Under the pieces are notes generated by a model. That model saw nothing but the letters and a program-made list of their open reading frames with translations, had not been told where the DNA came from and ran no database searches. Shown here in pieces: positions 2,105 through 20,000 of a DNA stretch of 20,000 nt. Position 1 is the first letter of the stretch. Each line of letters starts with the position of its first letter. This stretch comes from an uncultured virus (IMG/VR IMGVR_UViG_3300031774_000002) (lineage: Duplodnaviria > Heunggongvirae > Uroviricota > Caudoviricetes), in IMG/VR virus record IMGVR_UViG_3300031774_000002. The stretch is one strand, 5' to 3'. The position numbers were made by a program, and so were the translations under genes.

Positions 2105-3745
2105 TTAGTAATTTTCAAAGTTCCCATGAGTGATGTAATCTTGCGTGTCAAATGGGTCAGATGGTGTGTAATCTACAACATTATCATCAGGTATGCCATC
2201 ATCATGGAACCCAAATGGTAACATACTCTCCATCATTTCTTGATCTGTTTTTTCTCTTAATTGGATTAGTGTATTTATGTCTGTCATATCTTTAAAATAT
2301 GACTGGTCTGTCAGCCATGCAAATAAAACAAGACACATCACTAGATCATCATGAGCACCAGACTCTGCTTCATACGAGTTTCTTTTTCTCGAGAAAGTTG
2401 ATAGCTCTTTTATAGTATTAAAATCGTTAATTATAAGTTGATCTTGTTCAATCAACAGCTTTAGTATAGAACATCCTACAGCCTTCACGCTTTTAGTTGT
2501 TCTAATTCCTTTATCACACCTTTTGCTGAACCCAGTTGATATTCTTTTACCTGATCTTCCAGCACTTTCGGTGAATAATATGTTTTCATATTCAAATTCA
2601 TAATGAAGAAGCTCTGCGACTTGTTCACCAATATCATTTATTTCAACTAATACAGTCGCTTCATTAAAGCTCTTGCATGTTCTATATATTACTTCTGAGT
2701 ATTCAGCAGGAGTGATAAAGTTATCTCTGTAAACACAGACTTGTTTATATGGCATTTCTGTTATGTCTATTATCTGAAATGCTGAATAGTCTAAACCCTT
2801 TCCTCTTGATACATCAACGACACAAGCATAGGTATGATCTGGCTGTCCTTGATCATACATTGATATGCCACTACCCTCAACTAATGGTCTTTTATCCACT
2901 AATGTTTTTAGTTTACTACCATCAATCAATGTTCCAGAACTGCCAAGAAACTCACACTCATATTCTTGAGCAAACTTCTCAAGATCATAATCCATAGACT
3001 GCAATGTTTCTTCTTTCCAAGCATCATCTCTTCCAGGAACATCAGTCCAATTTACCCTGACATACTCATATCCATTTTTACCATCTCTAGCACCTTCGCA
3101 AGTTTTATAAAAATGATTCAAACCATTTGGTGTGGATGTCAATAATATTTTAGTTGTGTTACCAGAAGATATTGTGGGGAATACAGAAGCAAAAAATTCA
3201 TCCCAATTATCTACGAATGCAGTTTCATCAATGTATAGGAATGATACAGACTTACCACGAATAGCAGATGAGGATGTTGCAGCAGCAATAATTTTACAAC
3301 CATTCTCAAACTGAACTGAACCTTTGTTCCACTCAACGACACCTTGTTGCATCCATTGCGGTAGTGCTTCATATGCAATCTTAATTCTGTCAAGAATCTC
3401 ACGAGCTGAGTCGCCCTTGTTCGCAAGCAACGCAACAGTCTTATGCTCATTGAATAGAATGAAGTGTAATATAACAGCAACTGCGGTTGTAGTTTTACCT
3501 GCCTGCCGAGATGTGACCACAGTTACTCTACGATTATCAGTTATCTTCTCAATAATATCTCGTTGATAATCATACAGACGCATTGGTATTAGACCGTGAT
3601 CTACATGAACAATTTGTATGTAGTTCTCAGCAAAATAGAGTGGATCTTTAGCACACTTCACATATTCTGTGACTTGCTCTTGAGTCCAGCTGATCTGAAC
3701 ACCCTTCTTTTTGAGAAGAGCATTTCCATTATATGTATCAGCCAA
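2105..3745 (-). CDS. gp17: Terminase large subunit (TTG start)
   Basis: Q motif YDYQ, Walker A SRQAGKTT, Walker B FLYIDE, coupling motif TSTPNG, nuclease motifs VDVSRG and HDDLVM. No intein or intron visible. Confidence 0.97.
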   Translation of the reverse strand: MADTYNGNALLKKKGVQISWTQEQVTEYVKCAKDPLYFAENYIQIVHVDHGLIPMRLYDYQRDIIEKITDNRRVTVVTSRQAGKTTTAVAVILHFILFNEHKTVALLANKGDSAREILDRIKIAYEALPQWMQQGVVEWNKGSVQFENGCKIIAAATSSSAIRGKSVSFLYIDETAFVDNWDEFFASVFPTISSGNTTKILLTSTPNGLNHFYKTCEGARDGKNGYEYVRVNWTDVPGRDDAWKEETLQSMDYDLEKFAQEYECEFLGSSGTLIDGSKLKTLVDKRPLVEGSGISMYDQGQPDHTYACVVDVSRGKGLDYSAFQIIDITEMPYKQVCVYRDNFITPAEYSEVIYRTCKSFNEATVLVEINDIGEQVAELLHYEFEYENILFTESAGRSGKRISTGFSKRCDKGIRTTKSVKAVGCSILKLLIEQDQLIINDFNTIKELSTFSRKRNSYEAESGAHDDLVMCLVLFAWLTDQSYFKDMTDINTLIQLREKTDQEMMESMLPFGFHDDGIPDDNVVDYTPSDPFDTQDYITHGNFENY

Positions 3746-6226: not shown

Positions 6227-6967
6227 TTAGCCTATCATATCCATAGCTGGCATAGAGAATCGTTTCTGTACTTCTTCTTCTAACTTTTGGATTTCTTCAT
6301 TGGCTTCATTCCAAATATTTTGACCATTAAATGTTACTCCACCTGGAAGTTGTAAACCCTCAAACTTTTTAAGGTTTTCACCCCATTGTTTTTTGATTAA
6401 AGCAGTCGCATATTGACGCAACCACCAATCGCCCCAGACTTGCGTATTTGAGTCTGGATCAATAACTTGATAACACTCAACGATAATATACTCACCGACA
6501 TTTACTCTAGACCAGTCCATATCAATATGTAACTTGTCAGTGTGACGACTAAATCTTAATGGTTGCTTCCCTACAAATAACTCTTGTAGGAGAGCGATTC
6601 TTTCCATAGAAGAAGCATAATTCTGAAATTGTGCGTGTGACCAATCATAAACATCATTAAGTGTTATTTGATATCTAAGATTGAACATATTATTTGTATT
6701 AAGTCCAGCACCAATTGGAAAAATGTTTATCACACCATTAATAGTTTCGGGTATAGTTAAATACCCATTATTAATATCTGCTTGTGTTACTTGTGCTTTT
6801 AGAAAAGTTCTTTCGGTGCCATCATAATGATAATCTCTATAAAAATCTAATGCGTCATCTATACGATCATCTACTTGATCGTCATCAACATTAATTTCAA
6901 CAACTGGTGCACCGAGCCTGCGTAGGCAATATGTTTTGAATGTGCTTTTACTTGTAGGTACTGACAT
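6227..6967 (-). CDS. gp13: Neck / head completion protein
   Basis: YCLRRLGAPVVEINV, YHYDG and YATALIKKQWGENLKKFEGLQLPGGVTFNG. Confidence 0.94.
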   Translation of the reverse strand: MSVPTSKSTFKTYCLRRLGAPVVEINVDDDQVDDRIDDALDFYRDYHYDGTERTFLKAQVTQADINNGYLTIPETINGVINIFPIGAGLNTNNMFNLRYQITLNDVYDWSHAQFQNYASSMERIALLQELFVGKQPLRFSRHTDKLHIDMDWSRVNVGEYIIVECYQVIDPDSNTQVWGDWWLRQYATALIKKQWGENLKKFEGLQLPGGVTFNGQNIWNEANEEIQKLEEEVQKRFSMPAMDMIG

Positions 6968-7000
6968 ATGTATAGTCTCGAAGTCTGGATTAATCTAGAC

Positions 7001-7008
7001 TATTTATA
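7001..7008 (-). promoter_or_regulatory. T4-type late promoter TATAAATA for the gp13-gp17 unit
   Basis: Exact match 33 nt upstream of the gp13 ATG. Confidence 0.85.
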
Positions 7009-7049
7009 AGAACAATAAACAGTTATAATCTATCAACTACACCATAAAT

Positions 7050-7586
7050 TCATGAAGGTATGCCTTTAAACTTCCCATCTTCAAAATCATCCTCACCGAA
7101 CACAAAATCTTCATATGCATTTTTCAAATCATCATCCCAATATTTTTTTTCATGTTTTTCAATAGCAGCAAATGTGACCTCACAACCATCAAGTTCTGGA
7201 GTATCAGGTTCCCAATCAATTAACACAGTAGTTGAAACCAACATCATATTCCTCACTGCTTCTGCTAAATTATCGCCATGAGATTCTTCGGTTTTAGATG
7301 TAGTTGCTAGAGGATAAAAAATTAATCCATTTTGTATTCTTTCTTTCTTTAATAAGCCGTGTGTTGTTGTCATCTTTTTTGACAAGAATAATGGTTTAAA
7401 CTTCAAATATTTCTGAGGAACACCATCTTTTTTTCTGGCGATACGGCTCTCAGTTATTTCAACAACAGGAACTTGAGATTGAATTTTCGGAGATGGATCA
7501 AAATCTTCATATCTTTCACCCAGTTCTTTCCTTATATGTTCCAATTCTTCTTCTGTCATGTGGTAATTTTTATTTGATCTACTCAT
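7050..7586 (-). CDS. Hypothetical protein, 178 aa; start revised to ATG 7586
   Basis: ATGA overlap with the upstream stop (7583-7586) and a GAGGT SD at 7597-7601. No recognisable motif. Confidence 0.7.
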   Translation of the reverse strand: MSRSNKNYHMTEEELEHIRKELGERYEDFDPSPKIQSQVPVVEITESRIARKKDGVPQKYLKFKPLFLSKKMTTTHGLLKKERIQNGLIFYPLATTSKTEESHGDNLAEAVRNMMLVSTTVLIDWEPDTPELDGCEVTFAAIEKHEKKYWDDDLKNAYEDFVFGEDDFEDGKFKGIPS

Positions 7587-10432
7587 GTGTCTACGCACCT
7601 CATAACAAATGATTGTGCTATAACGGAATGCATTTTTTTCTGTACCGCATTTCCAGGTGGATAGCTATCATAATGAACTGTTCCAGGACGCTGTAGCACT
7701 TCAAGTGCCAAGTTTCCAGCAGAGCTTGTTTTAGTGGGGTCATCAGGATCCATAATCATCGAAAGTGTGGTTCTAGCACCGCCAGCATAGGATTGATATG
7801 TCCTGTATTCCTGTTCATGAATATGATTGTAGTCGACATTTGTGTGCGATATATCAAGAGTAGGTCTCTGAGGACCAAACGCAAAATCATCAAATACTGT
7901 ATGAATCATAAGATCACCATAATTAACAGCTTGTTGAGTCTCTGGACCTAGAACATCACTCGAACCAAAAGTGAAAGATTGAAGACCAGTTCTCTCTGGT
8001 GATTTGAAAGAGTTTGTCACACATTCCCATTTTCCTGGAAACATAAAAACATCTTGTACAGCAAAACGCTTGCTTGCATGCTGACCGACAAATCTGACTT
8101 TTAATCTCCCTATCTCGCTAAGTGGAAGAGGGATATGATAGACATACCATAATGAGTGTGGGTGGTCTGCTTCATTGGATATGCCAGCTGTTTGACCTAG
8201 AGCTTCTAAATGTCCTTGCGGATAATCACCTTCTCCGTCGTTATCTTCTCCACCAAAAGAATATGCACCCCTCAATGGGAAACAGTCTACAGTAGATAAA
8301 TCAGCATCACCAGTTCCTTCAGTAACATTTAAACAAGTGGGTTGAAATTTTGAAGAAGCATCATTAACAAAGTCATCCGAGTTGCCTCCCAAGTTCCCAC
8401 CTTCATAAGAAAAATAACCTTTGGTGTCAGTTCCATCCATAACCTCTGCACCTAGCTGTGCGTGATTTATAAGGACGGTTGTGAAGGTATAGTCCCTATA
8501 ATCTAATCTCTGGGAATAATTTTTTCTAGTTCCTTCTGAACCACCCCAAAATAAACCAAATAGATTAGTATCTTCTGTCACAGCAGATGTTGTGTCATGT
8601 TGAGGCATAGAACCAAAAAAACCGTCACCAGTGCCACCTGATATATATTGTTCAAACATAGCATCAGTGTCATATTTGAAAGAATAATAAGTCATTACTC
8701 TATCTTCTTCATGCTGAGGGCTTAAATATGTGTACTGTCTGCTAACTTCGGTTGGACCCCTGCTCCATGCTCTAGTATTGTAAAAGTGTAACCTTGCTTC
8801 CCAAAGCTCTGGTTTTTTCTGAGCAGATTGAAAATCAGAAAATTTTAATAGGTTTCCTTCAACTGAGTGATCTCCGATTGTTAATAACTCGCTATCATTG
8901 TAACGCGGTATTCCTCTTGTACCCCACCTTCCTGGTGTCGATGTTTGAAGCATTCTTCGCAATGCTTGTAACTCTAACGCATCTGCATTAGAAGTATCAC
9001 CTGCAGCACGAGTTTTTTTTGCTGCCGATATAAATGTGTTTACTATACCATCTGTTCTCGGAACATCAGCTAAAGGCAAGATTTTGTCTGAATGCCATAA
9101 AAAATCAGCAAAAGAAGTGTCATTATTCAAATCGCCATAGTAACCAACACTCGGAAGATTTAAAATACCATTATTGTCGCCTCTATCAGCATAATTGAGA
9201 TAATATAATAACCTCACCACTCCAGCACTATCTGGACCCTCGACTGAGATGAGAGAACCACTTATAAAATATGGACCAATATCACTGCCAGTGTTATTTC
9301 TTAAGAACATGTTTTTTAGGTTGCCATTATATTCAATTTGACTAGCCCCAGTCGCAGTAAATTCACTACCAAAACGGTTTGATTCTATTATTGTTGTGAA
9401 TTTAGTATCTCGCCCATCATTCAGGTTGTCAGTATCATAGGTTCCACCACTATCGCTTGGATTAAAACTGACTTGGAAAAAAGCACCGTCATTTCCTGAC
9501 ACAGTTCCTGAAGCGTCGGTAAAACCAGATGTGTCATATGCAGCATAAGTACCTGTGACATCTCGTGTTAAACCACGATAATATCCGCTCAAGTATGACT
9601 CACTAAAAAATCTAACTCCTCCTTCCCATGAATGTGTTGACTCTGGTTTATAAACATCTGGCAGGTGACCAAATTCATCCATGATACCACCTTCAAGTAA
9701 ACTTAGATAAGTAATATCATTATTAACTTTTATACTGGGTGTTGATTCAGCACCAGTTTGGGAAATTTGAACAACCTTTCCTGCACCAATTTCTATCGAA
9801 GTATCATCGATTGTTGTACTCCATACACCATTTTCTTGGAGGCTTTGATCAAAATTCAAAATACCAAATATAGTATAAGTGGCAAAGGTTGGGTCGTTTG
9901 ATGCTAATATTCTCGTATAATCTGCATGATGAAAACTGCTAGTATCAGTGCCTCTAATTTTAATTGTAAATTTGGAAATGTTTCTTGGTTGAAGCATATC
10001 AATTTGCAGATAATTTAAACTTGCATCAGTGATGCCTAATGTCCACCACCAGTGAGATCCACCAAAAGCAGAATCTGGGCTATAGGTAGACGAATGAGAA
10101 TAGCCAGCACTTACTGATATATCGCCTTGAGAGTATGGACCAAGTAGTTCGTCTGCACCACCATCAAGGTCGCTGCCATCTACTGCGAATGTGGCGGTTG
10201 GATAGACTGTATTAGTCACAGCTTCCGTTATCTGACATGATGATATCGCCTGACGATCTGTGCTGTTATTAAAAGTTCTGAGAGCAGTTTCGTTTGCAGT
10301 TAATACAGCATCTGTGCCATCTGTAGCAATGATCCTATAATACCTATATGGACCGCCATGTGGACCACCGTTTCCAGCCACAGTAGAAGATCGAAATGAG
10401 ATATCTCCTGTAGTTGATGATTTTACAGCCAT
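7583..10432 (-). CDS. Large putative virion / receptor-binding protein with an N-terminal discoidin (F5/8 type C)-like domain
   Basis: 949 aa, rich in G/S/T/D. Segments AFGGSHWWW, YLQIDMLQPRNISKFTI, ILASND and YRYYRI resemble discoidin domains. Lies downstream of a late promoter. Confidence 0.6.
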   Translation of the reverse strand: MAVKSSTTGDISFRSSTVAGNGGPHGGPYRYYRIIATDGTDAVLTANETALRTFNNSTDRQAISSCQITEAVTNTVYPTATFAVDGSDLDGGADELLGPYSQGDISVSAGYSHSSTYSPDSAFGGSHWWWTLGITDASLNYLQIDMLQPRNISKFTIKIRGTDTSSFHHADYTRILASNDPTFATYTIFGILNFDQSLQENGVWSTTIDDTSIEIGAGKVVQISQTGAESTPSIKVNNDITYLSLLEGGIMDEFGHLPDVYKPESTHSWEGGVRFFSESYLSGYYRGLTRDVTGTYAAYDTSGFTDASGTVSGNDGAFFQVSFNPSDSGGTYDTDNLNDGRDTKFTTIIESNRFGSEFTATGASQIEYNGNLKNMFLRNNTGSDIGPYFISGSLISVEGPDSAGVVRLLYYLNYADRGDNNGILNLPSVGYYGDLNNDTSFADFLWHSDKILPLADVPRTDGIVNTFISAAKKTRAAGDTSNADALELQALRRMLQTSTPGRWGTRGIPRYNDSELLTIGDHSVEGNLLKFSDFQSAQKKPELWEARLHFYNTRAWSRGPTEVSRQYTYLSPQHEEDRVMTYYSFKYDTDAMFEQYISGGTGDGFFGSMPQHDTTSAVTEDTNLFGLFWGGSEGTRKNYSQRLDYRDYTFTTVLINHAQLGAEVMDGTDTKGYFSYEGGNLGGNSDDFVNDASSKFQPTCLNVTEGTGDADLSTVDCFPLRGAYSFGGEDNDGEGDYPQGHLEALGQTAGISNEADHPHSLWYVYHIPLPLSEIGRLKVRFVGQHASKRFAVQDVFMFPGKWECVTNSFKSPERTGLQSFTFGSSDVLGPETQQAVNYGDLMIHTVFDDFAFGPQRPTLDISHTNVDYNHIHEQEYRTYQSYAGGARTTLSMIMDPDDPTKTSSAGNLALEVLQRPGTVHYDSYPPGNAVQKKMHSVIAQSFVMRCVDT

Positions 10433-10457
10433 TCTATTCTACCTTATTATGTTATTC

Positions 10458-10787
10458 TCAGACCCACGGAAGATCGCGTGGTTGAGTAGAGTTTCTTTTT
10501 TCTTCTATGGCTTGATCACAAGCGTTTTTACATTTGTTAAGATATTCATCAGAAATATTTGACTCGATCCAAGAAACGACTGTATTTGCTTGTAAGTTGC
10601 CAAACTCTACAAATTCGGATCCTGATTCTGGTTCTGGTATAACAGTGTTTCCTTCAAATCTAACAACAGTGCCATCATCGTGGGTTCCAACTAAATGAAA
10701 TGCCACATTCACTACAGCTTTTTCATGACCATGTGATGTTGTTTTAGTATCTAGATAAACAATGTCGTAGTAATATTGGTTTGCCAT
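10458..10787 (-). CDS. Small tail-fibre-associated protein (possible assembly/chaperone type)
   Basis: 109 aa. The pattern VVNV..H, FVEFGNL...V.SWI and C-terminal LPW resembles small proteins encoded beside phage tail-fibre genes. First gene after a late promoter. Confidence 0.55.
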   Translation of the reverse strand: MANQYYYDIVYLDTKTTSHGHEKAVVNVAFHLVGTHDDGTVVRFEGNTVIPEPESGSEFVEFGNLQANTVVSWIESNISDEYLNKCKNACDQAIEEKRNSTQPRDLPWV

Positions 10788-10826
10788 TTATTGACCTGCT
10801 TGTTGTTGATGTTTACATTAATGTTC

Positions 10827-10834
10827 TATTTATA
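10827..10834 (-). promoter_or_regulatory. T4-type late promoter TATAAATA
   Basis: Exact match 39 nt upstream of the ATG at 10787. Confidence 0.85.
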
Positions 10835-10850
10835 ATAGTTTTTTGTTCCA

Positions 10851-11999
10851 TTATTTATTTTTGATCATATTATATTTTTCTTCTAAGCTCTTAGCTGAAC
10901 AATTGGCTGGATGTTCTATTTGACAAACAACCTCACCATCAACCTCAATATCCCACAAATAATTTAATGTTGTCTCAAACACTTCAGGAACATAATCTGG
11001 AGGATAATCAACCTCAAGCTCAGGTAATGAATAATCTTCATGCAACAACATTTGCTTTTCCATATTGCATATCTCTTGGTTAAAAGGAAATAACCATTTG
11101 TTATTATTCTCACCAAATTCACCAACTTGACAAACAACTCCAGGATTGCTAGTATCATAGATATATGTTGGCGGTTTTTCCACATTGCAAAACATTTCTA
11201 ATCTTCCATGATAAGATTCATTTTTAAGAATAAAATATTGTGCTGTATCTTCTCCTACAAGAAGAAATTCTTTAAATTTATGTACTGCTGCTTTTCTAGA
11301 ATACCATGTTACTCTGCAGTGAGCTTCAAATGTTTCGCAATATTTTTGTTGTTTAGCATAATATATTAACATCTCTAATCTATCGCCTTTAGATATTTTC
11401 CTATCACTTGATAGTCCAGCGATGACTTTATTCCATAATTCTTTCTTTCTTACTTTACCATCAGCAGAATCTAATAGGTTAAGTGTTTCAGGTTCACCAT
11501 TTACAGTAAAAATTAAATTTGGTTTAACCTTGATATATTCTTCTGGTATATCACCAAGTTTCAATTCATTTTGATCAACATTATTTTCTTTTATCCATGT
11601 GTCAACAAGATTTCTATCCCAGACAAGAGCCATTTGATTTTTCATGCAAATAACATCTGGTGGAGAGTCTTGCTCAGCTATTCTTTTATACATCCAAACG
11701 CCATGTTGTGTCAAATAATCATCACCGTCAATCATAACAAAATAATCTTGATCACTCTCTAAAAATAAATCAAGCACACTGTTCTTTCCACGCGATGCAG
11801 TTCCGTTAGAATCTGTGACATAATGTTCTATATCTCTAGAGGAACACCACTCTTTCGCTTCAGCTTCATACTCTTTATCTAAAGTATTGATTACAACAAT
11901 AAGATCTTCCTTTGGTATTGCACTATAATCTGGGTGAATGTGTCTTTCAAGGCAATTAATTGATCTAGTAGTTAATACATAAAATTTCATTTTATTCAT
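10851..11999 (-). CDS. Putative GT-A fold (GT2-like) glycosyltransferase
   Basis: N-terminal FYVLTT...LIVVIN, SNGTASRGKN (NxG...RN-like), YFVMIDGDD (DxD motif) and a later GED. ATGA-coupled to the methyltransferase. Confidence 0.7.
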   Translation of the reverse strand: MNKMKFYVLTTRSINCLERHIHPDYSAIPKEDLIVVINTLDKEYEAEAKEWCSSRDIEHYVTDSNGTASRGKNSVLDLFLESDQDYFVMIDGDDYLTQHGVWMYKRIAEQDSPPDVICMKNQMALVWDRNLVDTWIKENNVDQNELKLGDIPEEYIKVKPNLIFTVNGEPETLNLLDSADGKVRKKELWNKVIAGLSSDRKISKGDRLEMLIYYAKQQKYCETFEAHCRVTWYSRKAAVHKFKEFLLVGEDTAQYFILKNESYHGRLEMFCNVEKPPTYIYDTSNPGVVCQVGEFGENNNKWLFPFNQEICNMEKQMLLHEDYSLPELEVDYPPDYVPEVFETTLNYLWDIEVDGEVVCQIEHPANCSAKSLEEKYNMIKNK

Positions 12000-12619
12000 C
12001 TATCAATCCTTTTTATCCAACTGCTGTCTTGAAATACTTTTGTTGGTCTTTTGATAATTTCATCTATAGCCTGCACGCATCCAGGAAATGCTGGCTCATC
12101 TGTTTTGGGGAATTGAGGAAATCTGTAATCATGCCCACCTATAAAACCCCCAGTTTTAACTTTTGGTATGTAATTAATCAAATCAGATTTAACTGCTTCA
12201 TAGCTATGGTTAGCATCAATGTAAATGAAATCAAAATATTCGTCTTGAAATACTTCGTGGATATTTTGGCTGAAATCTCTATGATGCACAATATTATGAT
12301 AATGTCTGGTATTTAAAAGAAACTGATTTTCAACAAACTCCCAGTCATAAAAATTCTCATCATTAAATTGTTCTTCTCCAGTGAATGGCTCTATACAATG
12401 TATTTCTTTAAATAAATTTGCCATACCAAACATAGCTGTTGATTCGCCCATGTAACTACCAATCTCGAGCATTTTTGCTTCCTTCACACCTCTTTTTTGC
12501 AGATCTTGTATTAATCTAAAAAGACCAGTCACAAAAACATTACCTTTGAACTCACTAAAAAATTGTGGTGGTGTGAATCTAAGTGAGTATAAAACTTTGT
12601 CATCTCTTGTGTATGTCAT
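11996..12619 (-). CDS. Class I SAM-dependent methyltransferase (Methyltransf_24-like), 207 aa; start revised to ATG 12619
   Basis: LEIGSYMGEST, FDFIYIDANHSYEAVKSD and KTGGFIGGHDY. ATGA overlap with the upstream stop at 12616-12619 and an AGGAG SD at 12627-12631. Confidence 0.88.
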   Translation of the reverse strand: MTYTRDDKVLYSLRFTPPQFFSEFKGNVFVTGLFRLIQDLQKRGVKEAKMLEIGSYMGESTAMFGMANLFKEIHCIEPFTGEEQFNDENFYDWEFVENQFLLNTRHYHNIVHHRDFSQNIHEVFQDEYFDFIYIDANHSYEAVKSDLINYIPKVKTGGFIGGHDYRFPQFPKTDEPAFPGCVQAIDEIIKRPTKVFQDSSWIKRIDR

Positions 12620-14487
12620 AAAGTATCTCCTGTGTACCTCGAAGTCCACATTGTCAGACTATATTTAACGCCACTCGTCAACTCTTCACACAAGTGACCG
12701 TGTGTTACCATTCCTGGAAATAGTATACACTTACCAACTTCTATATTTTTATTGGTGATATTTTGTCTTGGAAAAACTAAATCAGCACCCTCATACTCAT
12801 CATTTAATTTTACTGATCCAGTAATCATGCTTGCGTCACAGTGATGGTTTAGGCTCTTTTGTGTTTCTAGACAATACCTCATAACAAACGCATCGCGTAA
12901 TCCATACATTAATGTTGGTTTCCAGAATGCTTCTGTTATAGGATAAATGTTTTTCTGCCAATGGTTTTCTAATGCTTCAAAAGCACCAAACTCTGACATT
13001 CGTATTTCATAAGCTGGGAACTTATCTCCTTCCAATGGCTCCCACCCACCATGATTGTCTGCCATCGCAATCAAGTCTTCGCATTGTGATTGTGTCATGA
13101 AGTCTATGACTAACATATCATCGGATATAACATCAACCCCTTTGTAGTTTGGTATATACAACATTGGTGTTGACATCTTAACAGAGTTTCTTGCAGCATT
13201 AAATTTTTTCTTTGCTTCGTCACCACCGTTTCCATGATAGATACACCCAAATGTATTAGTGACAGGATTTAAAAATTTATTTTGGTCAACATCATATTTC
13301 ACTTGTGGCTCGTGACATTGGAATATGTAACCCTCATAGTCCAGCTTCATGTCATAATCACCAGACAAGAATGCTTTCTGATAAAATAGTTGATCATCTG
13401 AAGAGTTTTCAATAGTGGCAGAGCTGAGTATCTTTTTCAGCTCACTTACAACCCCAATAAATGTACCGCTGTTTAGGTATCTATACTTTGTGCCACCATC
13501 TGGGAACTTTTCAGCAAGGGATTTATCTGGCCAAATCTCTGTCTCGGATGAGAATAAAACTTTTGTTCGGAAGCTGAGATATCTTCTAGTTATCTCCTCA
13601 AGGTCAGAGAAATACATCACATCATATGCATCAGTAAAAAGAACAACATCGTTGTCTGGGAGTTCATTCACATAGTCTCTGAGGATATTAATCTTATGAC
13701 CACCCCCAGTTGATTGCATAGTGCCACCTTGCCACTCAACACCTTTACCGAGATTTTTAGGATAAACACCATACAACGCAGCAGTGTCATTTAGAGGAGC
13801 ACATTTTTTTATGTCAGTGCCAATTGTTACAGCGTGTGTATTGAAGTCAATGAAGAAGTCAGCTTCATTATTATTTTCTATATCTGATGACAACAAAGAT
13901 CTGGGTGTTTGCTTTATAACATCATCTTTAAATGCAACAACATTCATATTGTCTATCATTATAGGAAGATATTCGTCTACTGGTATTATTGCTTGATCAA
14001 CATTCCCATCAATAAGCTGTTGTGCTGTTTTTGGCGTTATAGCATAAGCATGGGCGTTATATGGATATGATGGAACTTCAAGCTCATCATCTATTGAAAC
14101 AACCTCGTCAGGTCTATTTTCGTTCCTGCCAAAATAGACCATATCATATTTTTTTATTAGTTTATTTGCTTTCTTGTCGGTGTAATTATCTCCAACAATC
14201 GCATCATCTTCTAATATGAGAACTGGTTCATTTAATTCGATGCATTTCAACCACGCTTCTCGATGAGATAAAGTGCATCCAACCTCTGATTTTTTAAGTT
14301 TTCTATTTAAGAAAGGATCACGCCAAGACAAATGCGATGAAAACCCAATGCCCTTCAATGCTTTGAAATCTAATCCAGAAGCATCTATGGCATTGAGCCA
14401 TTCATAATTTGTTATTTTTGAATTTACTTTTAAAAAGTGTTCCTTGCGATCTGTTCTTCTCGCAAGATTTATAACCAACTTTTTCAT
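12616..14487 (-). CDS. Three-domain protein: GT25 (COLGALT-like) + PLOD-type glycosyltransferase + Fe(II)/2OG lysyl-hydroxylase-like dioxygenase, 623 aa
   Basis: GT25: VINLARRTDR, RDPFLNRKL..SEVGCTLSH, LILEDD, PVDEYLP, SDIE. PLOD-GT: LGKGVEWQGG...GGGHKI, LFTDAYDV, YLNSGTFIG, DDQLFY, HGNG. Fe-2OG: FVMRY, HCD, FPG..THGH, GVKYSL. The GGAG SD at 14494-14497 favours ATG 14487. Confidence 0.88.
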   Translation of the reverse strand: MKKLVINLARRTDRKEHFLKVNSKITNYEWLNAIDASGLDFKALKGIGFSSHLSWRDPFLNRKLKKSEVGCTLSHREAWLKCIELNEPVLILEDDAIVGDNYTDKKANKLIKKYDMVYFGRNENRPDEVVSIDDELEVPSYPYNAHAYAITPKTAQQLIDGNVDQAIIPVDEYLPIMIDNMNVVAFKDDVIKQTPRSLLSSDIENNNEADFFIDFNTHAVTIGTDIKKCAPLNDTAALYGVYPKNLGKGVEWQGGTMQSTGGGHKINILRDYVNELPDNDVVLFTDAYDVMYFSDLEEITRRYLSFRTKVLFSSETEIWPDKSLAEKFPDGGTKYRYLNSGTFIGVVSELKKILSSATIENSSDDQLFYQKAFLSGDYDMKLDYEGYIFQCHEPQVKYDVDQNKFLNPVTNTFGCIYHGNGGDEAKKKFNAARNSVKMSTPMLYIPNYKGVDVISDDMLVIDFMTQSQCEDLIAMADNHGGWEPLEGDKFPAYEIRMSEFGAFEALENHWQKNIYPITEAFWKPTLMYGLRDAFVMRYCLETQKSLNHHCDASMITGSVKLNDEYEGADLVFPRQNITNKNIEVGKCILFPGMVTHGHLCEELTSGVKYSLTMWTSRYTGDTL

Positions 14488-14721: not shown

Positions 14722-15141
14722 TCACTTTAATGGTAGTTCAAAAGGGAAGCATTCAGCAAACAAAACTTTTTCGAGTTTATATGCCTCCTTTTCCCATGGT
14801 TGGTTTTCATACTGATATCCGTCAGCACTCCTTTTCTTCCATGCCCATCCACCGTTCTTTGTATAACCAAGTTCATTGCGCAGATATTGTCTTGCATGAA
14901 CCATCTCATGAGCAAGTGTTATCATTTGCTGAAGGAATGTTGTAGGTTGAGTGGCAATAGTCAGCGTCAAATCATCATCATCATACCAACATTCACCAAT
15001 ACATCCGTATGGAAGAACCCTCTGAAACTTAACAGTCAAAACTCTCTGAAATCTGTTTATCTTCAGTTCTTTGATTAAAGATTCAACATACAACATGACG
15101 GAGTCGCGATTTTTCACGCGACCTTTTATATTAACCAACAC
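14722..15141 (-). CDS. Putative zinc metallopeptidase (HExxH zincin-like)
   Basis: TLAHEMVHARQY plus YENQPWEKEA, with an upstream G.C strand. The GTG start overlaps the upstream TAG. Confidence 0.75.
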   Translation of the reverse strand: MLVNIKGRVKNRDSVMLYVESLIKELKINRFQRVLTVKFQRVLPYGCIGECWYDDDDLTLTIATQPTTFLQQMITLAHEMVHARQYLRNELGYTKNGGWAWKKRSADGYQYENQPWEKEAYKLEKVLFAECFPFELPLK

Positions 15142-16192: not shown

Positions 16193-16205
16193 AATCAACA
16201 ACTTA
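16193..16205 (+). promoter_or_regulatory. IHF consensus site (WATCAANNNNTTR)
   Basis: AATCAACAACTTA is an exact consensus match with an AT-rich 5' flank, about 77 bp upstream of the -35 at 16116. Confidence 0.5.
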
Positions 16206-17282
16206 GCCCAAAGGCTTACTGAGTTCATCCCAGCTTATTTCATAGTCGTTGTTGGAGTCTGCATATTTCATTATGCCGAGTTTCTCATATTCAGGGATAA
16301 ATTCTGTCCTGAGCAGTCCTATCCTTTTCAGATTAGGCATTATCCGAGTGAATAATGTACTCTGGAACTTTCGTTGAATCCAATGGGGTGGATCCATTTG
16401 ATAATCTTCGGTGTATTCAACATCCATACCATAATGCTCCCACAGAGCAAATGGCTTTAGATTTTTGCGACTAATCGTGCATGCTTCGAGAGCAAACTTC
16501 GCTCTATCATATTTTTCTTCTTCACTCAATGTTTCAATATACTCTTTAAGGTATGTCACACCAAAAGCAACATGCCTTGCTTCGTCTCTTAATATCAGCT
16601 CTATCATTCTTTTATATACTGGATCGTCTGCTGCTTCTTTTGCTACACTGAATGCAGCCAATGCAAATCCTTCTAGGATTACTTGCATGCCAAGAAATTT
16701 AAGATCCCATCTTGGATCTGTGAGTATTTTATCTAACAACCCTTTGAAGTGTCTATTGACTGGCCAAAGTTTATTGAGTCTTGTTTGGATATATTTGTTA
16801 AATGCTTCTACATGTCTTGCTTCATCAAATGCTTGACTTGCAGCATATAGTTTTGCGTTGTATGTGGGTGCACAACTACATAACTGACTAGCCACTAATA
16901 ATGAACATTGCTCTCCATGTAAGAACTGGCTGTTGTACCAAGAGAACATATCAGATAAGAATTGTACTCTTTTCTCTTTACTCCAACGCTTGTATACTTT
17001 ATGATTTTCCCATTGAGCATTCTCAAACTCAAACATGAAACTTGTGATTCCTGGATATTCAATAGACCAATCTATATCAAGCTCAACATTCCAGTTTAGC
17101 TTTTTACCAAGCTCATAAAGTCTTTTAATACGATCATCGTGCAGAGAGTAATCCCAGTTGTAACTTCCAACTAGAGGTGTTTCAAAAGTTTCTATTATAT
17201 CAGATGGCTCGAGGTCGGGGATAATGTCTTCACCGCAAAGTTTTATTTCTTTCGGTGGTGTCTTTCTTTTGTCAATCTGCAT
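16203..17282 (-). CDS. Ferritin-like diiron-carboxylate protein (AurF-like N-oxygenase family)
   Basis: FLHGEQ, DEARH, ILEG and a second DEARH give the E / ExxH / E / ExxH ligand pattern; 359 aa. Confidence 0.85.
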   Translation of the reverse strand: MQIDKRKTPPKEIKLCGEDIIPDLEPSDIIETFETPLVGSYNWDYSLHDDRIKRLYELGKKLNWNVELDIDWSIEYPGITSFMFEFENAQWENHKVYKRWSKEKRVQFLSDMFSWYNSQFLHGEQCSLLVASQLCSCAPTYNAKLYAASQAFDEARHVEAFNKYIQTRLNKLWPVNRHFKGLLDKILTDPRWDLKFLGMQVILEGFALAAFSVAKEAADDPVYKRMIELILRDEARHVAFGVTYLKEYIETLSEEEKYDRAKFALEACTISRKNLKPFALWEHYGMDVEYTEDYQMDPPHWIQRKFQSTLFTRIMPNLKRIGLLRTEFIPEYEKLGIMKYADSNNDYEISWDELSKPLG

Positions 17283-18005: not shown

Positions 18006-18913
18006 TATTGTGGTATTCTCCACTTGCCCATTAAATGACCCATAACTTGGTTTCTTTCACCATCAGAGAGCAATCTATTATAATTTATAATTTCCATTAT
18101 ATGACCACTAAACATTGCAAAGGTTGAATTATTCTGGGCGGTGCTGTTGCCTAAGGTATTAAATCCTGATCCTCCAACCATCCACCTTGTTCCTATGTTA
18201 CCAATTTTTGTTTTTGTTTGACTATCTGCAGCATCTGTCCCAGTGTTTGTTAATGTCATGCGACTACTACCAATTCCTGGATCACTATAAACAACTCTTG
18301 TACCTGCATTCAATTGTCCATTATGTCCATTTGTTGAGTGGCTGTCAGTATAGTTTGTTTGATGCTGTATCAAAGCATCAACACCATCAGCTAAATTAGT
18401 GGCAATTTCTATTTGAGCATCTGATGTACCAGTAGCTGTAGCAGAAGAACCGCCCATAGCAAATACATGGTCTTCATCATCACCAAATTGGGCATCTGTC
18501 CCATCACCGCCCAACAATATACCATTTCCAGACTCTAACGCTTTAAGTCTAAAATAATTTGTCGCATAAGGTGAAGTTCTTAAAGATGTTGCTGTTTTAT
18601 TTAAAACTATAAAGACAGTGTATTGAAACTCATTCCACTGCGGAGCAGTAGTATGCATTATTTCGTTAAATTGGAATCCATCTGGTCCAAAAACTACTGA
18701 TGGCAACCCATTTGAAGGAGAAGTTGAGGTTGATGGTTTTTTGTTATCTGCACTTTGTGTTGCATGATATCCATTACCAGACTTATCATTCCATTGACTA
18801 ATCAGTCCACTGCTTGAAGTGATACTACTACTGTCCGATGCATCTAACCATTGGTATAGATTTGGAATATCACTTGGAACAAATGATTGAGCAACAACTG
18901 CAGCACTAAACAT
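18005..18913 (-). CDS. LamG / concanavalin A-like lectin domain virion protein
   Basis: WLDASD, QWNDKSGNGYHATQ, YTVFIV and FSGHIMEIINYNRLLS...LMGKW are typical of phage LamG-like domains. TAATG-coupled to the fibre gene. Confidence 0.75.
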   Translation of the reverse strand: MFSAAVVAQSFVPSDIPNLYQWLDASDSSSITSSSGLISQWNDKSGNGYHATQSADNKKPSTSTSPSNGLPSVVFGPDGFQFNEIMHTTAPQWNEFQYTVFIVLNKTATSLRTSPYATNYFRLKALESGNGILLGGDGTDAQFGDDEDHVFAMGGSSATATGTSDAQIEIATNLADGVDALIQHQTNYTDSHSTNGHNGQLNAGTRVVYSDPGIGSSRMTLTNTGTDAADSQTKTKIGNIGTRWMVGGSGFNTLGNSTAQNNSTFAMFSGHIMEIINYNRLLSDGERNQVMGHLMGKWRIPQ

Positions 18914-20000
18914 TAACTGATACCACCACCGAATATGGTGAGAGTATCTGAGCCAGTAACAACAAGCTCAGCAACACCACCTGAAGCAATAGTGCTGTTT
19001 GCACTTAATGCAGTAAATGAACCGCCTGAAGCAAAGTTTAATGTTATACTGTTAGTTGTTTTATCTAGTGTTAATGCTTGTGTTGTAGAGTTTACAACTG
19101 TAAATATCTGACCAACAGTGCTAACAGAAGGAATCTTAAATATATTCACACCGCCAGTATGTGTGTTTATAACTTTCTTGTTTGCTTCCATTGTGTATGT
19201 TGTATTTGCAGCACTGATAACAACAGTTGTTGGATTTGCGGTTATACCACCAGATACATTTAATGACCCACTTAGTTCTAAATCAGAATAAAATGTTGAA
19301 CCAGCACCTTCTAAGCTCAACACTTCAGCATTAGTTCCTGCTGTTATAGCATCGAACCGTATACGACCATCTTCTGTTCCATCAGATACATCAGCAATCT
19401 CAGCATAAATTGATCCATACTGAATCTTTTCTGCGGGTGATGATGGTGGATTTGCTGTATCATTAATACCAAAAAATCTTATAGCTCCTAATTCATCATT
19501 ATCTGACGCACTGTGCAAACCAGTTCCTGAATTGCGATATAACTCTAAAACAGGATTTTCAGTCTGTCCTTCTGTAGTATCAAAACTTATTAGCGATAAT
19601 GATCCAGAATTTAAAAACCCAGTTGAAGGATTATAAGTTAGACCGTACTCTCCAGTATGATCTCTAAGACCATTTGATTCATCATGAAATACAACTGGTA
19701 AATTTGAATCCGTTAGCGTTGAGTCAGCAGTTACAGTAACCGTTGTCGCAAGAGTGGCTGTTGCCGCAGTCCCAGTAGTATCTTGGTTAAGAGTTGCTAC
19801 CCTTGCTGCAGCAATTGTACCAGAGTTTATCTGTTCACCACTAATAGATTTATTTGTTAGCGTGTCACTACTTGAGGCAGTAATAAATGAACTTAACTCT
19901 GAGTCTCTAGCTATGCCACTTGGAATCCTTGCATCAGCTATTGTCCCAGTTAATTGACCAGCATCAATAGATTTATTTGTTAGTGTATCACTACTAGATG
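18913..20000 (-). CDS. Tail fibre-like protein, C-terminal ~360 aa (5' end outside the window)
   Basis: Hand translation shows the frame open from 19998 down to 18913, so the 201-aa track ORF is a fragment. Contains DTLTNKSI repeats, GTAATAT, LTYNPST and LYRNS...DNDELGAIRF...DGTEDG fibre-type motifs. Confidence 0.75.
   Translation of the reverse strand, partial: SSSDTLTNKSIDAGQLTGTIADARIPSGIARDSELSSFITASSSDTLTNKSISGEQINSGTIAAARVATLNQDTTGTAATATLATTVTVTADSTLTDSNLPVVFHDESNGLRDHTGEYGLTYNPSTGFLNSGSLSLISFDTTEGQTENPVLELYRNSGTGLHSASDNDELGAIRFFGINDTANPPSSPAEKIQYGSIYAEIADVSDGTEDGRIRFDAITAGTNAEVLSLEGAGSTFYSDLELSGSLNVSGGITANPTTVVISAANTTYTMEANKKVINTHTGGVNIFKIPSVSTVGQIFTVVNSTTQALTLDKTTNSITLNFASGGSFTALSANSTIASGGVAELVVTGSDTLTIFGGGIS
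19843..19983. repeat. Intragenic direct repeat, 18 nt exact, 123-nt (41-aa) period
   Basis: AATAGATTTATTTGTTAG occurs at 19843-19860 and 19966-19983. The protein repeats SSSDTLTNKSI..Q..GTIA.AR. Confidence 0.8.

Follow-up and report, generated by a model that had tools for sequence, protein, structure and literature searches.

A marine T4-like phage encodes, in one open reading frame, a protein that carries counterparts of the three catalytic modules of human collagen-lysine modification. The gene (P0001; 12616..14487) lies in a stretch of 20,000 nucleotides from an uncultured virus (IMG/VR IMGVR_UViG_3300031774_000002), referred to here as the window; all features described are on the minus strand. 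The single open frame of 623 codons and a stop is a fusion of a GT25 glycosyltransferase domain, a PLOD-type glycosyltransferase (GT) domain and a lysyl hydroxylase (LH) domain, in that order. Because the enzyme is encoded near a giant Gly-X-Lys collagen fibre gene, the phage probably decorates its fibres with sugars. The protein is likely to be a cytoplasmic, late-expressed tail-fibre maturation enzyme, which hydroxylates and then diglycosylates lysines of collagen-like fibre chains made by the phage itself, ahead of triple-helix folding. The broader proposition is that phages produce authentic glycosylated hydroxylysine, which may be Glc-Gal-Hyl, on collagen-like fibres by means of a minimal, single-chain machine of the LH3-COLGALT1 type, and that this chemistry is common across several morphotypes of marine phage; this proposition is given an even chance of being correct.

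Translation starts at the ATG at 14487, which is preceded by a GGAG ribosome-binding site six bases 5', and the homologues likewise begin MKKLVINL. A TTG one codon upstream is probably not the start. The first-pass annotation, made from the DNA letters, had claimed three motif-complete domains in this frame. Pfam, phmmer and profile matches agree with that claim, and the domain coordinates proposed were correct to within about 40 bases. The AlphaFold model of the enzyme has a mean pLDDT of 88.2 and a pTM of 0.82. When the folds were compared domain by domain with Foldseek, as had been suggested, the corresponding collagen-lysine enzyme was the best match for each, with LH3, 6wfv, R699, COLGALT1 and L230 ahead of bacterial GT25 enzymes and prolyl hydroxylases. 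The catalytic and metal-binding residues E93/D94/D95, D286/D289/H418, D364/D365 and H549/D551/H598 are invariant among 30 homologues of 50-89% identity. The conservation of these metal ligands throughout the family argues for selection on each of the three domains as an enzyme.

The first domain (residues 1-215; 13843..14487) is a COLGALT-type GT25 glycosyltransferase domain according to Pfam, phmmer and Foldseek. Pfam Glyco_transf_25 (PF01755) matches residues 2-173 (E 7.9e-24; 85.1 bits, cut-off 24) over profile positions 3-198 of 199, while phmmer against the PDB aligns residues 4-187 with residues 317-511 of the COLGALT1 chain (E 4e-17). Since only this part of COLGALT1 is aligned, the phage domain is an orthologue of the COLGALT catalytic domain alone and not of whole COLGALT; the N-terminal non-catalytic GT1 domain is absent, and the phage protein begins with the GT25 domain. 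In Foldseek, the domain matches 9evj with E 2.5e-14 and an rmsd of 2.5 over 232 columns. Mimivirus R655 matches it as well (E 9.5e-6). The residues Glu93-Asp94-Asp95 (14203..14211), invariant in 30/30 homologues, match 'feddl' of COLGALT1 position by position and are the counterpart of its Glu435-Asp436-Asp437 Mn2+ motif. In COLGALT1 this EDD motif is the Mn2+ site of the GT2 domain, for which Glu435Ala and Asp437Ala mutants are described (PMC12003778). The motifs that the first-pass annotation had quoted as COLGALT-like or PLOD-like each align with their counterparts in COLGALT1 or LH3, in this domain RDPF..SEVGCTLSH with RDPY..GELGCFLSH and PVDEYLP with PVDEFLP.

Grouping with bacterial LPS enzymes, which had been raised as the competing outcome for this domain, was not observed. 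The solved bacterial GT25 beta-1,4-galactosyltransferase (8xlz/8xc8) is matched at E 2e-3, against 4e-17 for COLGALT1, although few bacterial GT25 entries are present in the PDB. Likewise, the Foldseek rmsd is 2.2-2.5 on the COLGALT1 side and about 9 for bacterial GT25. A bacterial LPS/LOS GT25 identity was rejected because COLGALT1 is far closer than the few bacterial structures compared, and because the domain is fused and lies inside a phage structural module. By analogy with COLGALT1, the domain may transfer galactose from UDP-Gal to peptidyl hydroxylysine.

The central domain (residues 216-440; 13168..13842) is a PLOD/LH3-type glycosyltransferase domain. It is matched by Pfam GT_PLOD (PF25342) over residues 231-436 (E 3.5e-52; 177.5 bits, cut-off 27), by the GT domains of LH3 (i-E 1.3e-27) and mimivirus R699 (1.3e-32) in phmmer searches of the PDB, and by 6wfv in Foldseek (target-normalised TM 0.83, rmsd 2.4). 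Asp286-x-x-Asp289 (13621..13632) and His418 (13234-13236) are the counterparts of LH3 Asp112/Asp115 and His253, and Asp364/Asp365 of LH3 Asp190/Asp191; all are invariant. In LH3, Asp112, Asp115 and His253 are the Mn2+ ligands. For this comparison, an offset of +23 between LH3 chain and UniProt numbering was used, which was checked against the sequence of the Val80Lys mutant in 6teu. Among the quoted motifs, GGGHKI aligns with GGGQKV, YLNSGTFIG with FLNSGGFIG and DDQLFY with DDQLFY. By analogy with LH3, this domain may transfer glucose to galactosyl-hydroxylysine.

The third domain (residues 449-623; 12619..13143) is a PLOD-type Fe(II)/2-oxoglutarate lysyl-hydroxylase domain by profile search and Foldseek. 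While none of the Pfam 2OG models reached E 0.1 against the 623-residue protein, a phmmer search of the PDB matched residues 457-612 to the human LH3 structure, in its LH domain (i-E 2.3e-6). A profile built from 16 LH-domain sequences (A2) recovered from the PDB the LH domains of mimivirus L230 (2.4e-13) and human LH3 (1.7e-12), the only matches below E 1e-11; the next match was PiuC at 0.015, and no prolyl 4-hydroxylase appeared at E up to 1. In Foldseek the domain matches 6ax6 with a target-normalised TM of 0.75 and an rmsd of 2.0, and L230 LH scores 2.4e-11 compared with about 1e-6 for prolyl 4-hydroxylases. Both the sequence profile and the fold ranking thus favour lysyl hydroxylases over the generic prolyl-hydroxylase-like grouping that had been considered. 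Neither the PDB profile search, with matches considered up to E 1, nor the Foldseek matches listed contained a TET/JBP or AlkB entry, though a distant relation could escape such lists.

The Fe(II) ligands His549-x-Asp551 (12835..12843) and the distal His598 (12694-12696) align with LH3 His667/Asp669 and His719, respectively, and are invariant. FVMRY of the phage enzyme aligns with FVVRY, and HCD with HHD. At the column of the 2OG-binding Arg729 of LH3, the phage enzyme has Lys608 (12664..12666, an AAA codon read directly), which is invariant in 30/30 and 16/16 sequences of two homologue sets. This bears out the earlier observation that the Lys of GVKY replaces the 2OG-binding Arg. By alignment, the change appears to be a conservative basic replacement, yet it is a departure from the PLOD signature. 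Other 2OG oxygenases use Lys at the 2OG-binding position. The apparent absence of the PLOD accessory (AC) domain was also confirmed: residues 238-425 correspond to LH3 chain residues 38-237 and residues 457-612 to 542-710, so that only about 20 residues link GT and LH. In architecture, therefore, the phage protein is not a PLOD orthologue. Peptidyl lysine 5-hydroxylation is the predicted activity of the LH domain. Among cellular sequences, the nearest to it, at 35-42% identity, are oxygenases that stand alone in MAGs of Actinomycetota. The flanks of all 76 LH-domain-only loci were free of collagen runs, and housekeeping genes surround the one such locus examined (L217, in a contig of 412 kb), indicating that this fold family is not confined to collagen.

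The enzyme's own genome offers a candidate collagenous substrate in which Lys occupies most Y positions. The scan for (Gly-X-Y)n genes that had been proposed with the first-pass annotation located an ORF of 1703 residues outside the window (G000:C1:76436-81547; L195:5437-10548), on the same strand and 8.3 kb upstream of the enzyme gene. It lies directly upstream of a 1299-residue fibre-like ORF, the C-terminal part of which is at 18913..20000 and which runs off the window. The proposed substrate contains four stretches matched by Pfam Collagen (E 1.5e-29) and, at its C-terminus, a chaperone domain of the Peptidase_S74 type (E 6.7e-15). Its collagen runs comprise 27, 15 and 15 triplets, with Lys at Y in 48/57 and Thr in 2/57. 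Pro is absent from all three runs, so prolyl hydroxylation is no option there.

The pairing of enzyme and collagen recurs across the family. Of the 33 IMG/VR enzyme loci in which the upstream flank extends for 8 kb or more, 31 carry a collagen ORF (14 triplets or more) that lies 19-6175 bp upstream and in the same orientation; in the two remaining loci it is about 15 kb upstream. In Roseobacter phage CRP-6, gp60 is a collagen with 99 triplets, gp58 is the enzyme and gp59 lies between them. The pairing is also found in complete phage genomes of 54 kb and 61 kb, and spans three kinds of phage genome. Four full-length matches came from GTDB, and both of the two with enough flank show it as well. 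Among T4-like records selected by TerL, collagen is present in 3/4 with the enzyme and 0/11 without it (Fisher p = 0.0088); the sequence of the fourth enzyme-positive record is cut at the enzyme gene. The co-occurrence counts as a whole take in related contigs and lack phylogenetic independence.

The linked collagens are also distinctive in composition. In 43 distinct ORFs, Lys occupies Y in 1541 of 5228 triplets (29%) and X in none, and each ORF has at least 12% Lys at Y. In control collagens from 42 viral records without the three-domain enzyme, Lys is at Y in 94/2081 triplets (4.5%) and at X in 35. Because the controls also favour Y over X, position alone is no proof of a hydroxylase constraint. 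Lys at Y is expected from the Lys-Gly-Glu/Asp salt bridges of triple helices.

The enzyme gene is located within the structural module, on the same strand, between the fibre genes and gp13/14/15-like neck genes. Its TGA stop overlaps the ATG of a SAM-dependent methyltransferase gene (ATGA; Methyltransf_24, PF13578, E 1.3e-17; 11996..12619), which adjoins the enzyme in 0/85 related loci (tblastn, E 1e-5). Right after the methyltransferase stop begins a gene for a 382-residue protein (10851..11999), the N-terminal part of which resembles GT-A nucleotide-sugar transferases. In nine related loci its gene is immediately downstream of the enzyme gene. This protein has an invariant D91-G-D-D motif and a weak Atlas lead to Glycos_transf_2, and no match to it was found in Pfam, PHROG or NCBIfam. 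Its model is poor overall (pLDDT 57), with residues 1-110 at 63-95, and VIA-align gives Z values of 9-12 to GT-A glycosyltransferases and to nucleotidyltransferases too. The products of these two genes may extend or cap the glycan.

The three-domain family is represented in at least 524 IMG/VR stretches and at least 978 database proteins. It corresponds over its full length to phrog_61, '2OG-Fe(II) oxygenase' (E 3.1e-130, residues 1-618), whose members include proteins of Synechococcus phages S-CAM9, S-8S53/55/56 and S-PRM1 and gp58 of CRP-6. By tblastn, identity to the enzyme is 49-50% in the cyanophages and 40% in CRP-6. The phrog_61 members in these named phages are likewise next to collagen, but the homologues carry only the names '2OG-Fe(II) oxygenase', 'hypothetical protein' and 'GT family 25 / LPS biosynthesis'. 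The words collagen, glycosyl and oxygenase do not appear in the main text of the CRP-6 genome paper (PMC6918029), and a literature search found no paper describing the three-domain family. The generic names and the silence of the CRP-6 paper indicate that the family is known as a cluster but that its function has not been interpreted.

The proposed mechanism consists of three steps. The C-terminal Fe(II)/2-oxoglutarate domain would hydroxylate Y-position lysines of Gly-X-Lys triplets to hydroxylysine, the N-terminal COLGALT-like GT25 domain would then move a first hexose from a UDP-sugar onto the new hydroxyl, and the central LH3/R699-like GT domain would attach a second. The 623-residue chain would thereby carry out the chemistry of the human LH3-COLGALT1 complex minus its two non-catalytic domains. 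By analogy, the sugars may be galactose and then glucose. We infer the activity of each domain, the order of the steps and the presence of the modified fibre in the virion. The suggestion of the first-pass annotation, a single enzyme for the hydroxylation and subsequent glycosylation of virion-fibre lysines, gains strong support from the genomic context, namely the Lys-rich collagen ORF and the recurrent pairing.

Collagen-like fibres could also be modified by a different, rather unlikely route, in which the hydroxylase acts alone or on another residue, one or both GTs act directly on Thr at Y or place glucose straight on hydroxylysine, or one GT is only structural. Direct glycosylation of Thr occurs in a collagen-like protein, BclA of Bacillus, and in many linked collagens Thr equals Lys at Y (1856 vs 1912). 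Direct glucosylation of hydroxylysine is carried out by L230 (PMC9546862), and one of the two GT-like domains of COLGALT1 is non-catalytic (PMC12003778). However, the fibre of the phage itself has Lys at 48 of its 57 Y positions and Thr at only 2, all 43 linked collagens retain at least 12% Lys at Y, and the invariant metal ligands argue for selection on all three domains as enzymes.

Much less probable is that the targets are non-collagen lysines of other virion or host proteins and that the collagen neighbourhood reflects shared residence in the variable tail-fibre region. The stand-alone bacterial LH relatives without collagen fit this explanation, but it is difficult to reconcile with a link maintained in three unrelated genome types and over very short distances (19-6175 bp), the lack of collagen in enzyme-negative relatives, and a Lys enrichment at Y specific to linked collagens. 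Least probable, and disfavoured, are the remodelling of the host envelope (LPS or LOS) and the hydroxylation and glycosylation of phage DNA bases. For the latter, the pairing of a dioxygenase with a GT follows the same principle as base J and T-even DNA glucosylation, but the oxygenase profile matched no TET/JBP or AlkB entry at E up to 1, and the gene is in the structural rather than the DNA-metabolism module. The envelope reading is encouraged by the database name 'GR25 family glycosyltransferase involved in LPS biosynthesis', by the Pfam family name 'LPS biosynthesis protein', and by the interpretation of GTs in pelagimyophage tail-fibre regions as O-chain modifiers (PMC7029224); against it stands the far closer match of the GT25 domain to COLGALT1. 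Both readings leave the collagen coupling and the PLOD-type GT domain unexplained.

Hydroxylation of collagen lysine and its decoration with Glc-Gal are regarded as chemistry of animals, mimivirus being the sole viral example. According to a review of 2022, prokaryotic collagens are for the most part devoid of these modifications, and the collagens of phages amount to no more than short capsid motifs (PMC8968730). The phage protein described here unites the full catalytic set in a single chain and is linked to giant Lys-rich collagen fibres. If self-modification of fibres is correct, this 'metazoan' pathway would extend into the bacterial virosphere, and phage or bacterial fusions would become candidates for the origin, or for kin, of the enzymes in animals and giant viruses. 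The prevalent naming of the family as LPS glycosyltransferase or generic oxygenase would be put right as well. It would also recast glycosyltransferases of marine phage tail-fibre regions as agents of self-modification rather than of host O-antigen remodelling. Glycosylated recombinant collagen cannot yet be made in bacteria, according to PMC9546862, and a compact single-chain enzyme that is presumably active in the bacterial cytoplasm could serve this purpose. Because the family is present in cultured phages (S-CAM9, S-PRM1 and CRP-6), the prediction can be tested by mass spectrometry of virions.

The closest known systems are those of humans and of mimivirus. Human LH3/PLOD3 and GLT25D1/COLGALT1, for which a structure of the complex is available (8zgc; PMC11897130), possess the same three catalytic modules. 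They share with the phage enzyme the unusual Glu-Asp-Asp Mn2+ site, the Asp-x-x-Asp and His residues with the Asp190/191 pair, the His-x-Asp...His Fe site, and folds that superpose with an rmsd of 2.0-2.5 per domain. The predicted substrate, Lys at Y of Gly-X-Y repeats, is also the same. In contrast, the human system consists of two proteins in complex rather than one chain, and the accessory domain of LH3 and the GT1 domain of COLGALT1, both non-catalytic, are missing from the phage enzyme, which also has Lys in place of the 2OG-binding Arg729. Sequence identity is only 15-34% in the Foldseek rows. Furthermore, the human enzymes reside in the ER while the phage enzyme would be active in a bacterial cytoplasm, and its proposed substrate, a fibre with a Peptidase_S74 chaperone, is unlike human collagen. 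Acanthamoeba polyphaga mimivirus likewise has a viral collagen-lysine modification set, namely L230, R699 and R655 (PDB 6ax6, 9dyt and 9crz). The central GT domain of the phage enzyme finds its best non-human match in R699 (33-34% identity), and the C-terminal domain its best profile match in L230 LH. In L230, the LH domain is joined to a glucosyltransferase whose acceptor is hydroxylysine itself, so that glucose and not galactose is placed there, while the activity of R655 was untested according to the same source (PMC9546862). Overall, the mimivirus activities are distributed over three separate proteins of a giant virus that infects eukaryotes, whereas in the phage all three domains are fused.

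The enzyme is encoded in one open frame on the minus strand (window 12616-14487). Its start is placed at the ATG at 14487, which is preceded by GGAG and matches the N-termini of homologues, and the product is therefore 623 aa in length. Pfam assigns a Glyco_transf_25 domain to residues 2-173 (E 7.9e-24) and a PLOD GT domain to residues 231-436 (E 3.5e-52), and the last 175 residues align to the lysyl-hydroxylase (LH) domain of human LH3. None of the Pfam 2OG models match the enzyme at E 0.1, and among the best 120 homologues listed only two carry PF13640. A 16-sequence profile of the C-terminal region, searched against the PDB, recovered the LH domain of mimivirus L230 (2.4e-13) and LH3 (1.7e-12), followed by PiuC at 0.015, while prolyl 4-hydroxylase was absent from this search at E up to 1. 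There are no NCBIfam models for the enzyme or for the two genes behind it, which encode a Methyltransf_24 protein and a 382-aa protein.

The predicted structure provides further evidence for these assignments. The AlphaFold model, for which 30 homologues served as the alignment input, is confident, with a pLDDT of 88.2 and a pTM of 0.82. In Foldseek searches the central domain matched the human GGT domain 6wfv (target-normalised TM 0.83, rmsd 2.4) and mimivirus R699 (33-34% identity), the GT25 domain matched human COLGALT1 (rmsd 2.2-2.5), and the C-terminal domain matched the L230 LH domain (target-normalised TM 0.75, rmsd 2.0). For every domain the top match was the corresponding collagen-lysine enzyme, ranking above bacterial GT25 beta-1,4-galactosyltransferase and the prolyl hydroxylases. 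The grouping of the phage domains with COLGALT and PLOD is thus one of PDB E-values and fold ranks. The first-pass annotation had read three domains in this single ORF, and that reading holds, by Pfam for both glycosyltransferases and by the LH3/L230 profile and fold for the oxygenase.

Active-site residues were mapped with HMMER alignments and an offset of +23 between the LH3 chain and UniProt numbering, which was verified against 6teu, a Val80Lys mutant that departs in sequence at exactly that column. E93-D94-D95 occupies the columns of the COLGALT1 Glu-Asp-Asp motif, described as the Mn2+ site of its catalytic GT2 domain (PMC12003778). D286/D289/H418 correspond to LH3 D112/D115/H253, D364/D365 to D190/D191, H549/D551/H598 to H667/D669/H719, and K608 to R729. 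All of these residues are invariant among 30 full-length homologues of 50-89% identity, and for this reason the lysine in place of arginine at the 2OG-binding position is, judging from the alignments, a fixed family trait and not a lesion. The enzyme also lacks both the accessory domain of LH3 and the GT1 domain of COLGALT1, which are described as related to each other and non-catalytic (PMC12003778). Both this substitution and the missing PLOD accessory domain had been suspected in the first-pass annotation and are borne out here. As predicted from its sequence, the enzyme consists of three catalytic modules and little besides.

The same genome encodes a collagen-like fibre, which came to light in the scan for (Gly-X-Y)n genes that had been proposed as a check. 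The window covers positions 53624-73623 of the 110-kb viral contig, and the 1703-aa fibre ORF lies at contig 76436-81547, first in the transcriptional gene order. It is followed by a 1299-aa fibre-like ORF, a 302-aa structural protein, eight small or unassigned ORFs and the enzyme. After the enzyme, on the minus strand, come the methyltransferase, the 382-aa protein, DUF7936, a 949-aa protein, neck proteins of the gp13, gp14 and gp15 types, the small terminase, a nuclease, the large terminase and the tail sheath. The 1703-aa protein matches Pfam Collagen (E 1.5e-29) and, at its C-terminus, has an intramolecular chaperone domain of the Peptidase_S74 type, a combination that is a hallmark of trimeric fibres. 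It contains three Gly-X-Y runs of 27, 15 and 15 triplets, with sequence of the form GEKGEKGQKGLK and onward. Lysine occupies 48 of the 57 Y positions in these runs and threonine two, and the runs are free of proline, so that Y-position lysine would be almost the sole residue open to a collagen-type hydroxylase in this phage.

The block from fibre to enzyme sits just upstream of the neck genes (window 6227-14487, compared with the T4 order), and gp13/gp14 homologues flank the enzyme in 27 related loci. In T4 this region is occupied by gp12 and fibritin (wac). Based on this position, the collagen fibre may be an analogue of a whisker, collar or short fibre rather than a long tail fibre.

The pairing of enzyme and collagen extends well beyond this contig. 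The family comprises 978 proteins at E 1e-5 or better, with one common architecture in the best 120. In IMG/VR, 524 of 599 matching stretches were confirmed; a scan with a single protein returned one locus only, and an alignment-based scan was needed to recover these stretches. Searched by megablast, the whole window had no match among cultured phages. Among the best 80 viral loci, in counts that take in related contigs, a same-strand collagen ORF with 14 or more triplets was found upstream in 31 of the 33 loci with an upstream flank of at least 8 kb (19-6175 bp distant), in 6 of 11 with 3-8 kb and in 10 of 36 with less than 3 kb, the pattern that contig truncation would give. In each of the two long-flank exceptions the contig does hold a collagen ORF, but farther upstream, at about 15 kb. 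One complete genome of 53.8 kb, which has terminal repeats, carries the pair as neighbours when its contig ends are joined. The pairing is also present in a complete 60.8-kb phage and in the cultured T4-like cyanophages S-CAM9 and S-PRM1; the cyanophage fibre ORFs with collagen runs are 1825-1831 aa long. In the 45-kb Roseobacter phage CRP-6, the enzyme homologue gp58 is parted by one small gene from gp60 ('putative tail fiber protein'), which has 99 triplets and a recurring GAKGQKGEV motif.

Several controls bear on this association. Among 15 viral records selected by TerL, collagen was present in 3 of 4 with the enzyme and 0 of 11 without it (Fisher p = 0.0088; the three positives are closely related to one another); the fourth enzyme-positive record is cut at the enzyme gene. 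The collagen control consisted of 42 viral records, out of 50 selected loci and 17 further contigs, sampled through a DNA pattern of 15 Gly codons at 9-base spacing. None of the 42 contained the three-domain enzyme; there was one GT25-only match and one weak oxygenase match. The 43 distinct enzyme-linked collagen ORFs hold 5228 triplets, with lysine at Y in 1541 (29%) and never at X. The 42 records without the enzyme hold 2081, with lysine at Y in 94 (4.5%) and at X in 35 (17 of the 42 records having some). Lys-Gly-Glu/Asp salt bridges stabilise triple helices, and the control collagens likewise prefer lysine at Y. Because this preference is general in collagens, the strong signals are the six-fold enrichment at Y and the complete lack of lysine at X, not position alone. 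The GT25-only match lies at 21796-22386 of control contig G031 (loci L287 and L288; E 1.4e-15, profile residues 9-180), whose collagen ORF has lysine at 15 of 69 Y positions and at five X positions. This contig may encode an incomplete or otherwise distinct form of fibre glycosylation.

Other readings of the enzyme arise from its names and its relatives. Source records use names such as 'GR25 family glycosyltransferase involved in LPS biosynthesis' for the family, PHROGs lists it as phrog_61 '2OG-Fe(II) oxygenase', and a pelagimyophage survey takes phage glycosyltransferases as O-antigen modifiers (PMC7029224). The fold ranks favour collagen-lysine enzymes for every domain. Modification of LPS or of DNA is regarded as unlikely and is set aside. 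Glycosylation of threonine by one of the GT domains is conceivable elsewhere in the family, where many enzyme-linked collagens hold as much threonine as lysine at Y, but threonine is rare in the runs of this genome. A general restriction of the LH-like domain to collagen was rejected. In GTDB, only 4 of 80 hits are full-length, all on MAG contigs of 2.5-61 kb. The 61-kb contig is probably viral, since its length and its collagen ORF resemble those of the complete 60.8-kb IMG/VR phage genome. The other 76 hits are to the oxygenase domain alone (35-42% identity; Actinomycetota MAGs, mostly Ilumatobacteraceae), in proteins of about 240 aa such as L217:7782-8510 (+), with 75 others among loci L200-L275. 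Collagen runs occur in two of the 80 GTDB loci, both full-length, and in the flanks of none of the 76. L217, the one locus inspected, is chromosomal and actinobacterial with housekeeping neighbours. These stand-alone bacterial relatives show that the use of this oxygenase fold extends beyond collagen.

The TGA stop of the enzyme gene overlaps the ATG of the methyltransferase gene (ATGA), and the gene for the 382-aa protein (window 10851-11999, minus strand) begins directly past the methyltransferase stop; in nine related loci this protein lies directly behind the enzyme. Its first 110 residues, the confident part of a model that is poor overall (pLDDT 57), resemble GT-A nucleotide-sugar transferases and have an invariant DGDD motif, with nucleotidyltransferases scoring about equally. 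By its model the protein is GT-A-like, short of a proven glycosyltransferase, and together with the methyltransferase it might tentatively be assigned to glycan extension or capping. Just upstream of the enzyme, a 139-aa protein (window 14722-15141, minus strand) has a HEMVH motif that could be the signature of a zinc metallopeptidase; its only matches are two PHROGs without assigned function (phrog_10499, phrog_16532). A 359-aa ferritin-like di-iron oxygenase (window 16203-17282, minus strand) is encoded between the enzyme and the fibre genes. It matches aldehyde decarbonylase, R2-like ligand-binding oxidase and Pfam AurF (1.8e-11) weakly and no PHROG at all, and a search of 85 related loci gave no homologues. 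The 949-aa ORF that separates DUF7936 from the neck genes (window 7583-10432, minus strand) has no Pfam, PHROG or NCBIfam matches and weak relatives in only two related loci (L004, L007), and its product is probably a structural or fibre protein of the variable kind. The contig has a G+C content of 36.9%. The large terminase (window 2105-3745, minus strand) is nearer to those of the cultured Sinorhizobium phages phiM12, phiN3 and phiM7 (~60% identity) than to those of cyanophages (~48%), which points to a marine alphaproteobacterium, and not a cyanobacterium, as the possible host.

In conclusion, the collagen-lysine-modification reading of the enzyme is supported by strong comparative genomics, and the sugar identities and the order of steps would, by analogy, be those of LH3 and COLGALT1. 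The literature searched, with subscription-only papers and bioRxiv supplements outside its scope, describes no phage lysyl hydroxylase or collagen glycosyltransferase, in agreement with the first-pass annotation, and the CRP-6 genome paper does not mention the domains of the enzyme homologue. Bacterial dioxygenases of other families have been predicted to modify collagen-like proteins (Iyer et al., 2010; PMC2938197). In animals, LH3 and COLGALT1 are reported to form a complex (PMC11897130). L230 is described as placing glucose directly on hydroxylysine, so a viral enzyme can do so, and in mimivirus the activities are divided over L230, R699 and R655 (PMC9546862), whereas in the phage they would reside in one chain. 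Collagen lysine hydroxylation and glycosylation is already known as a kind of system, and what is new is the phage setting, the union of all three predicted catalytic modules in a single chain and the lack of accessory domains.
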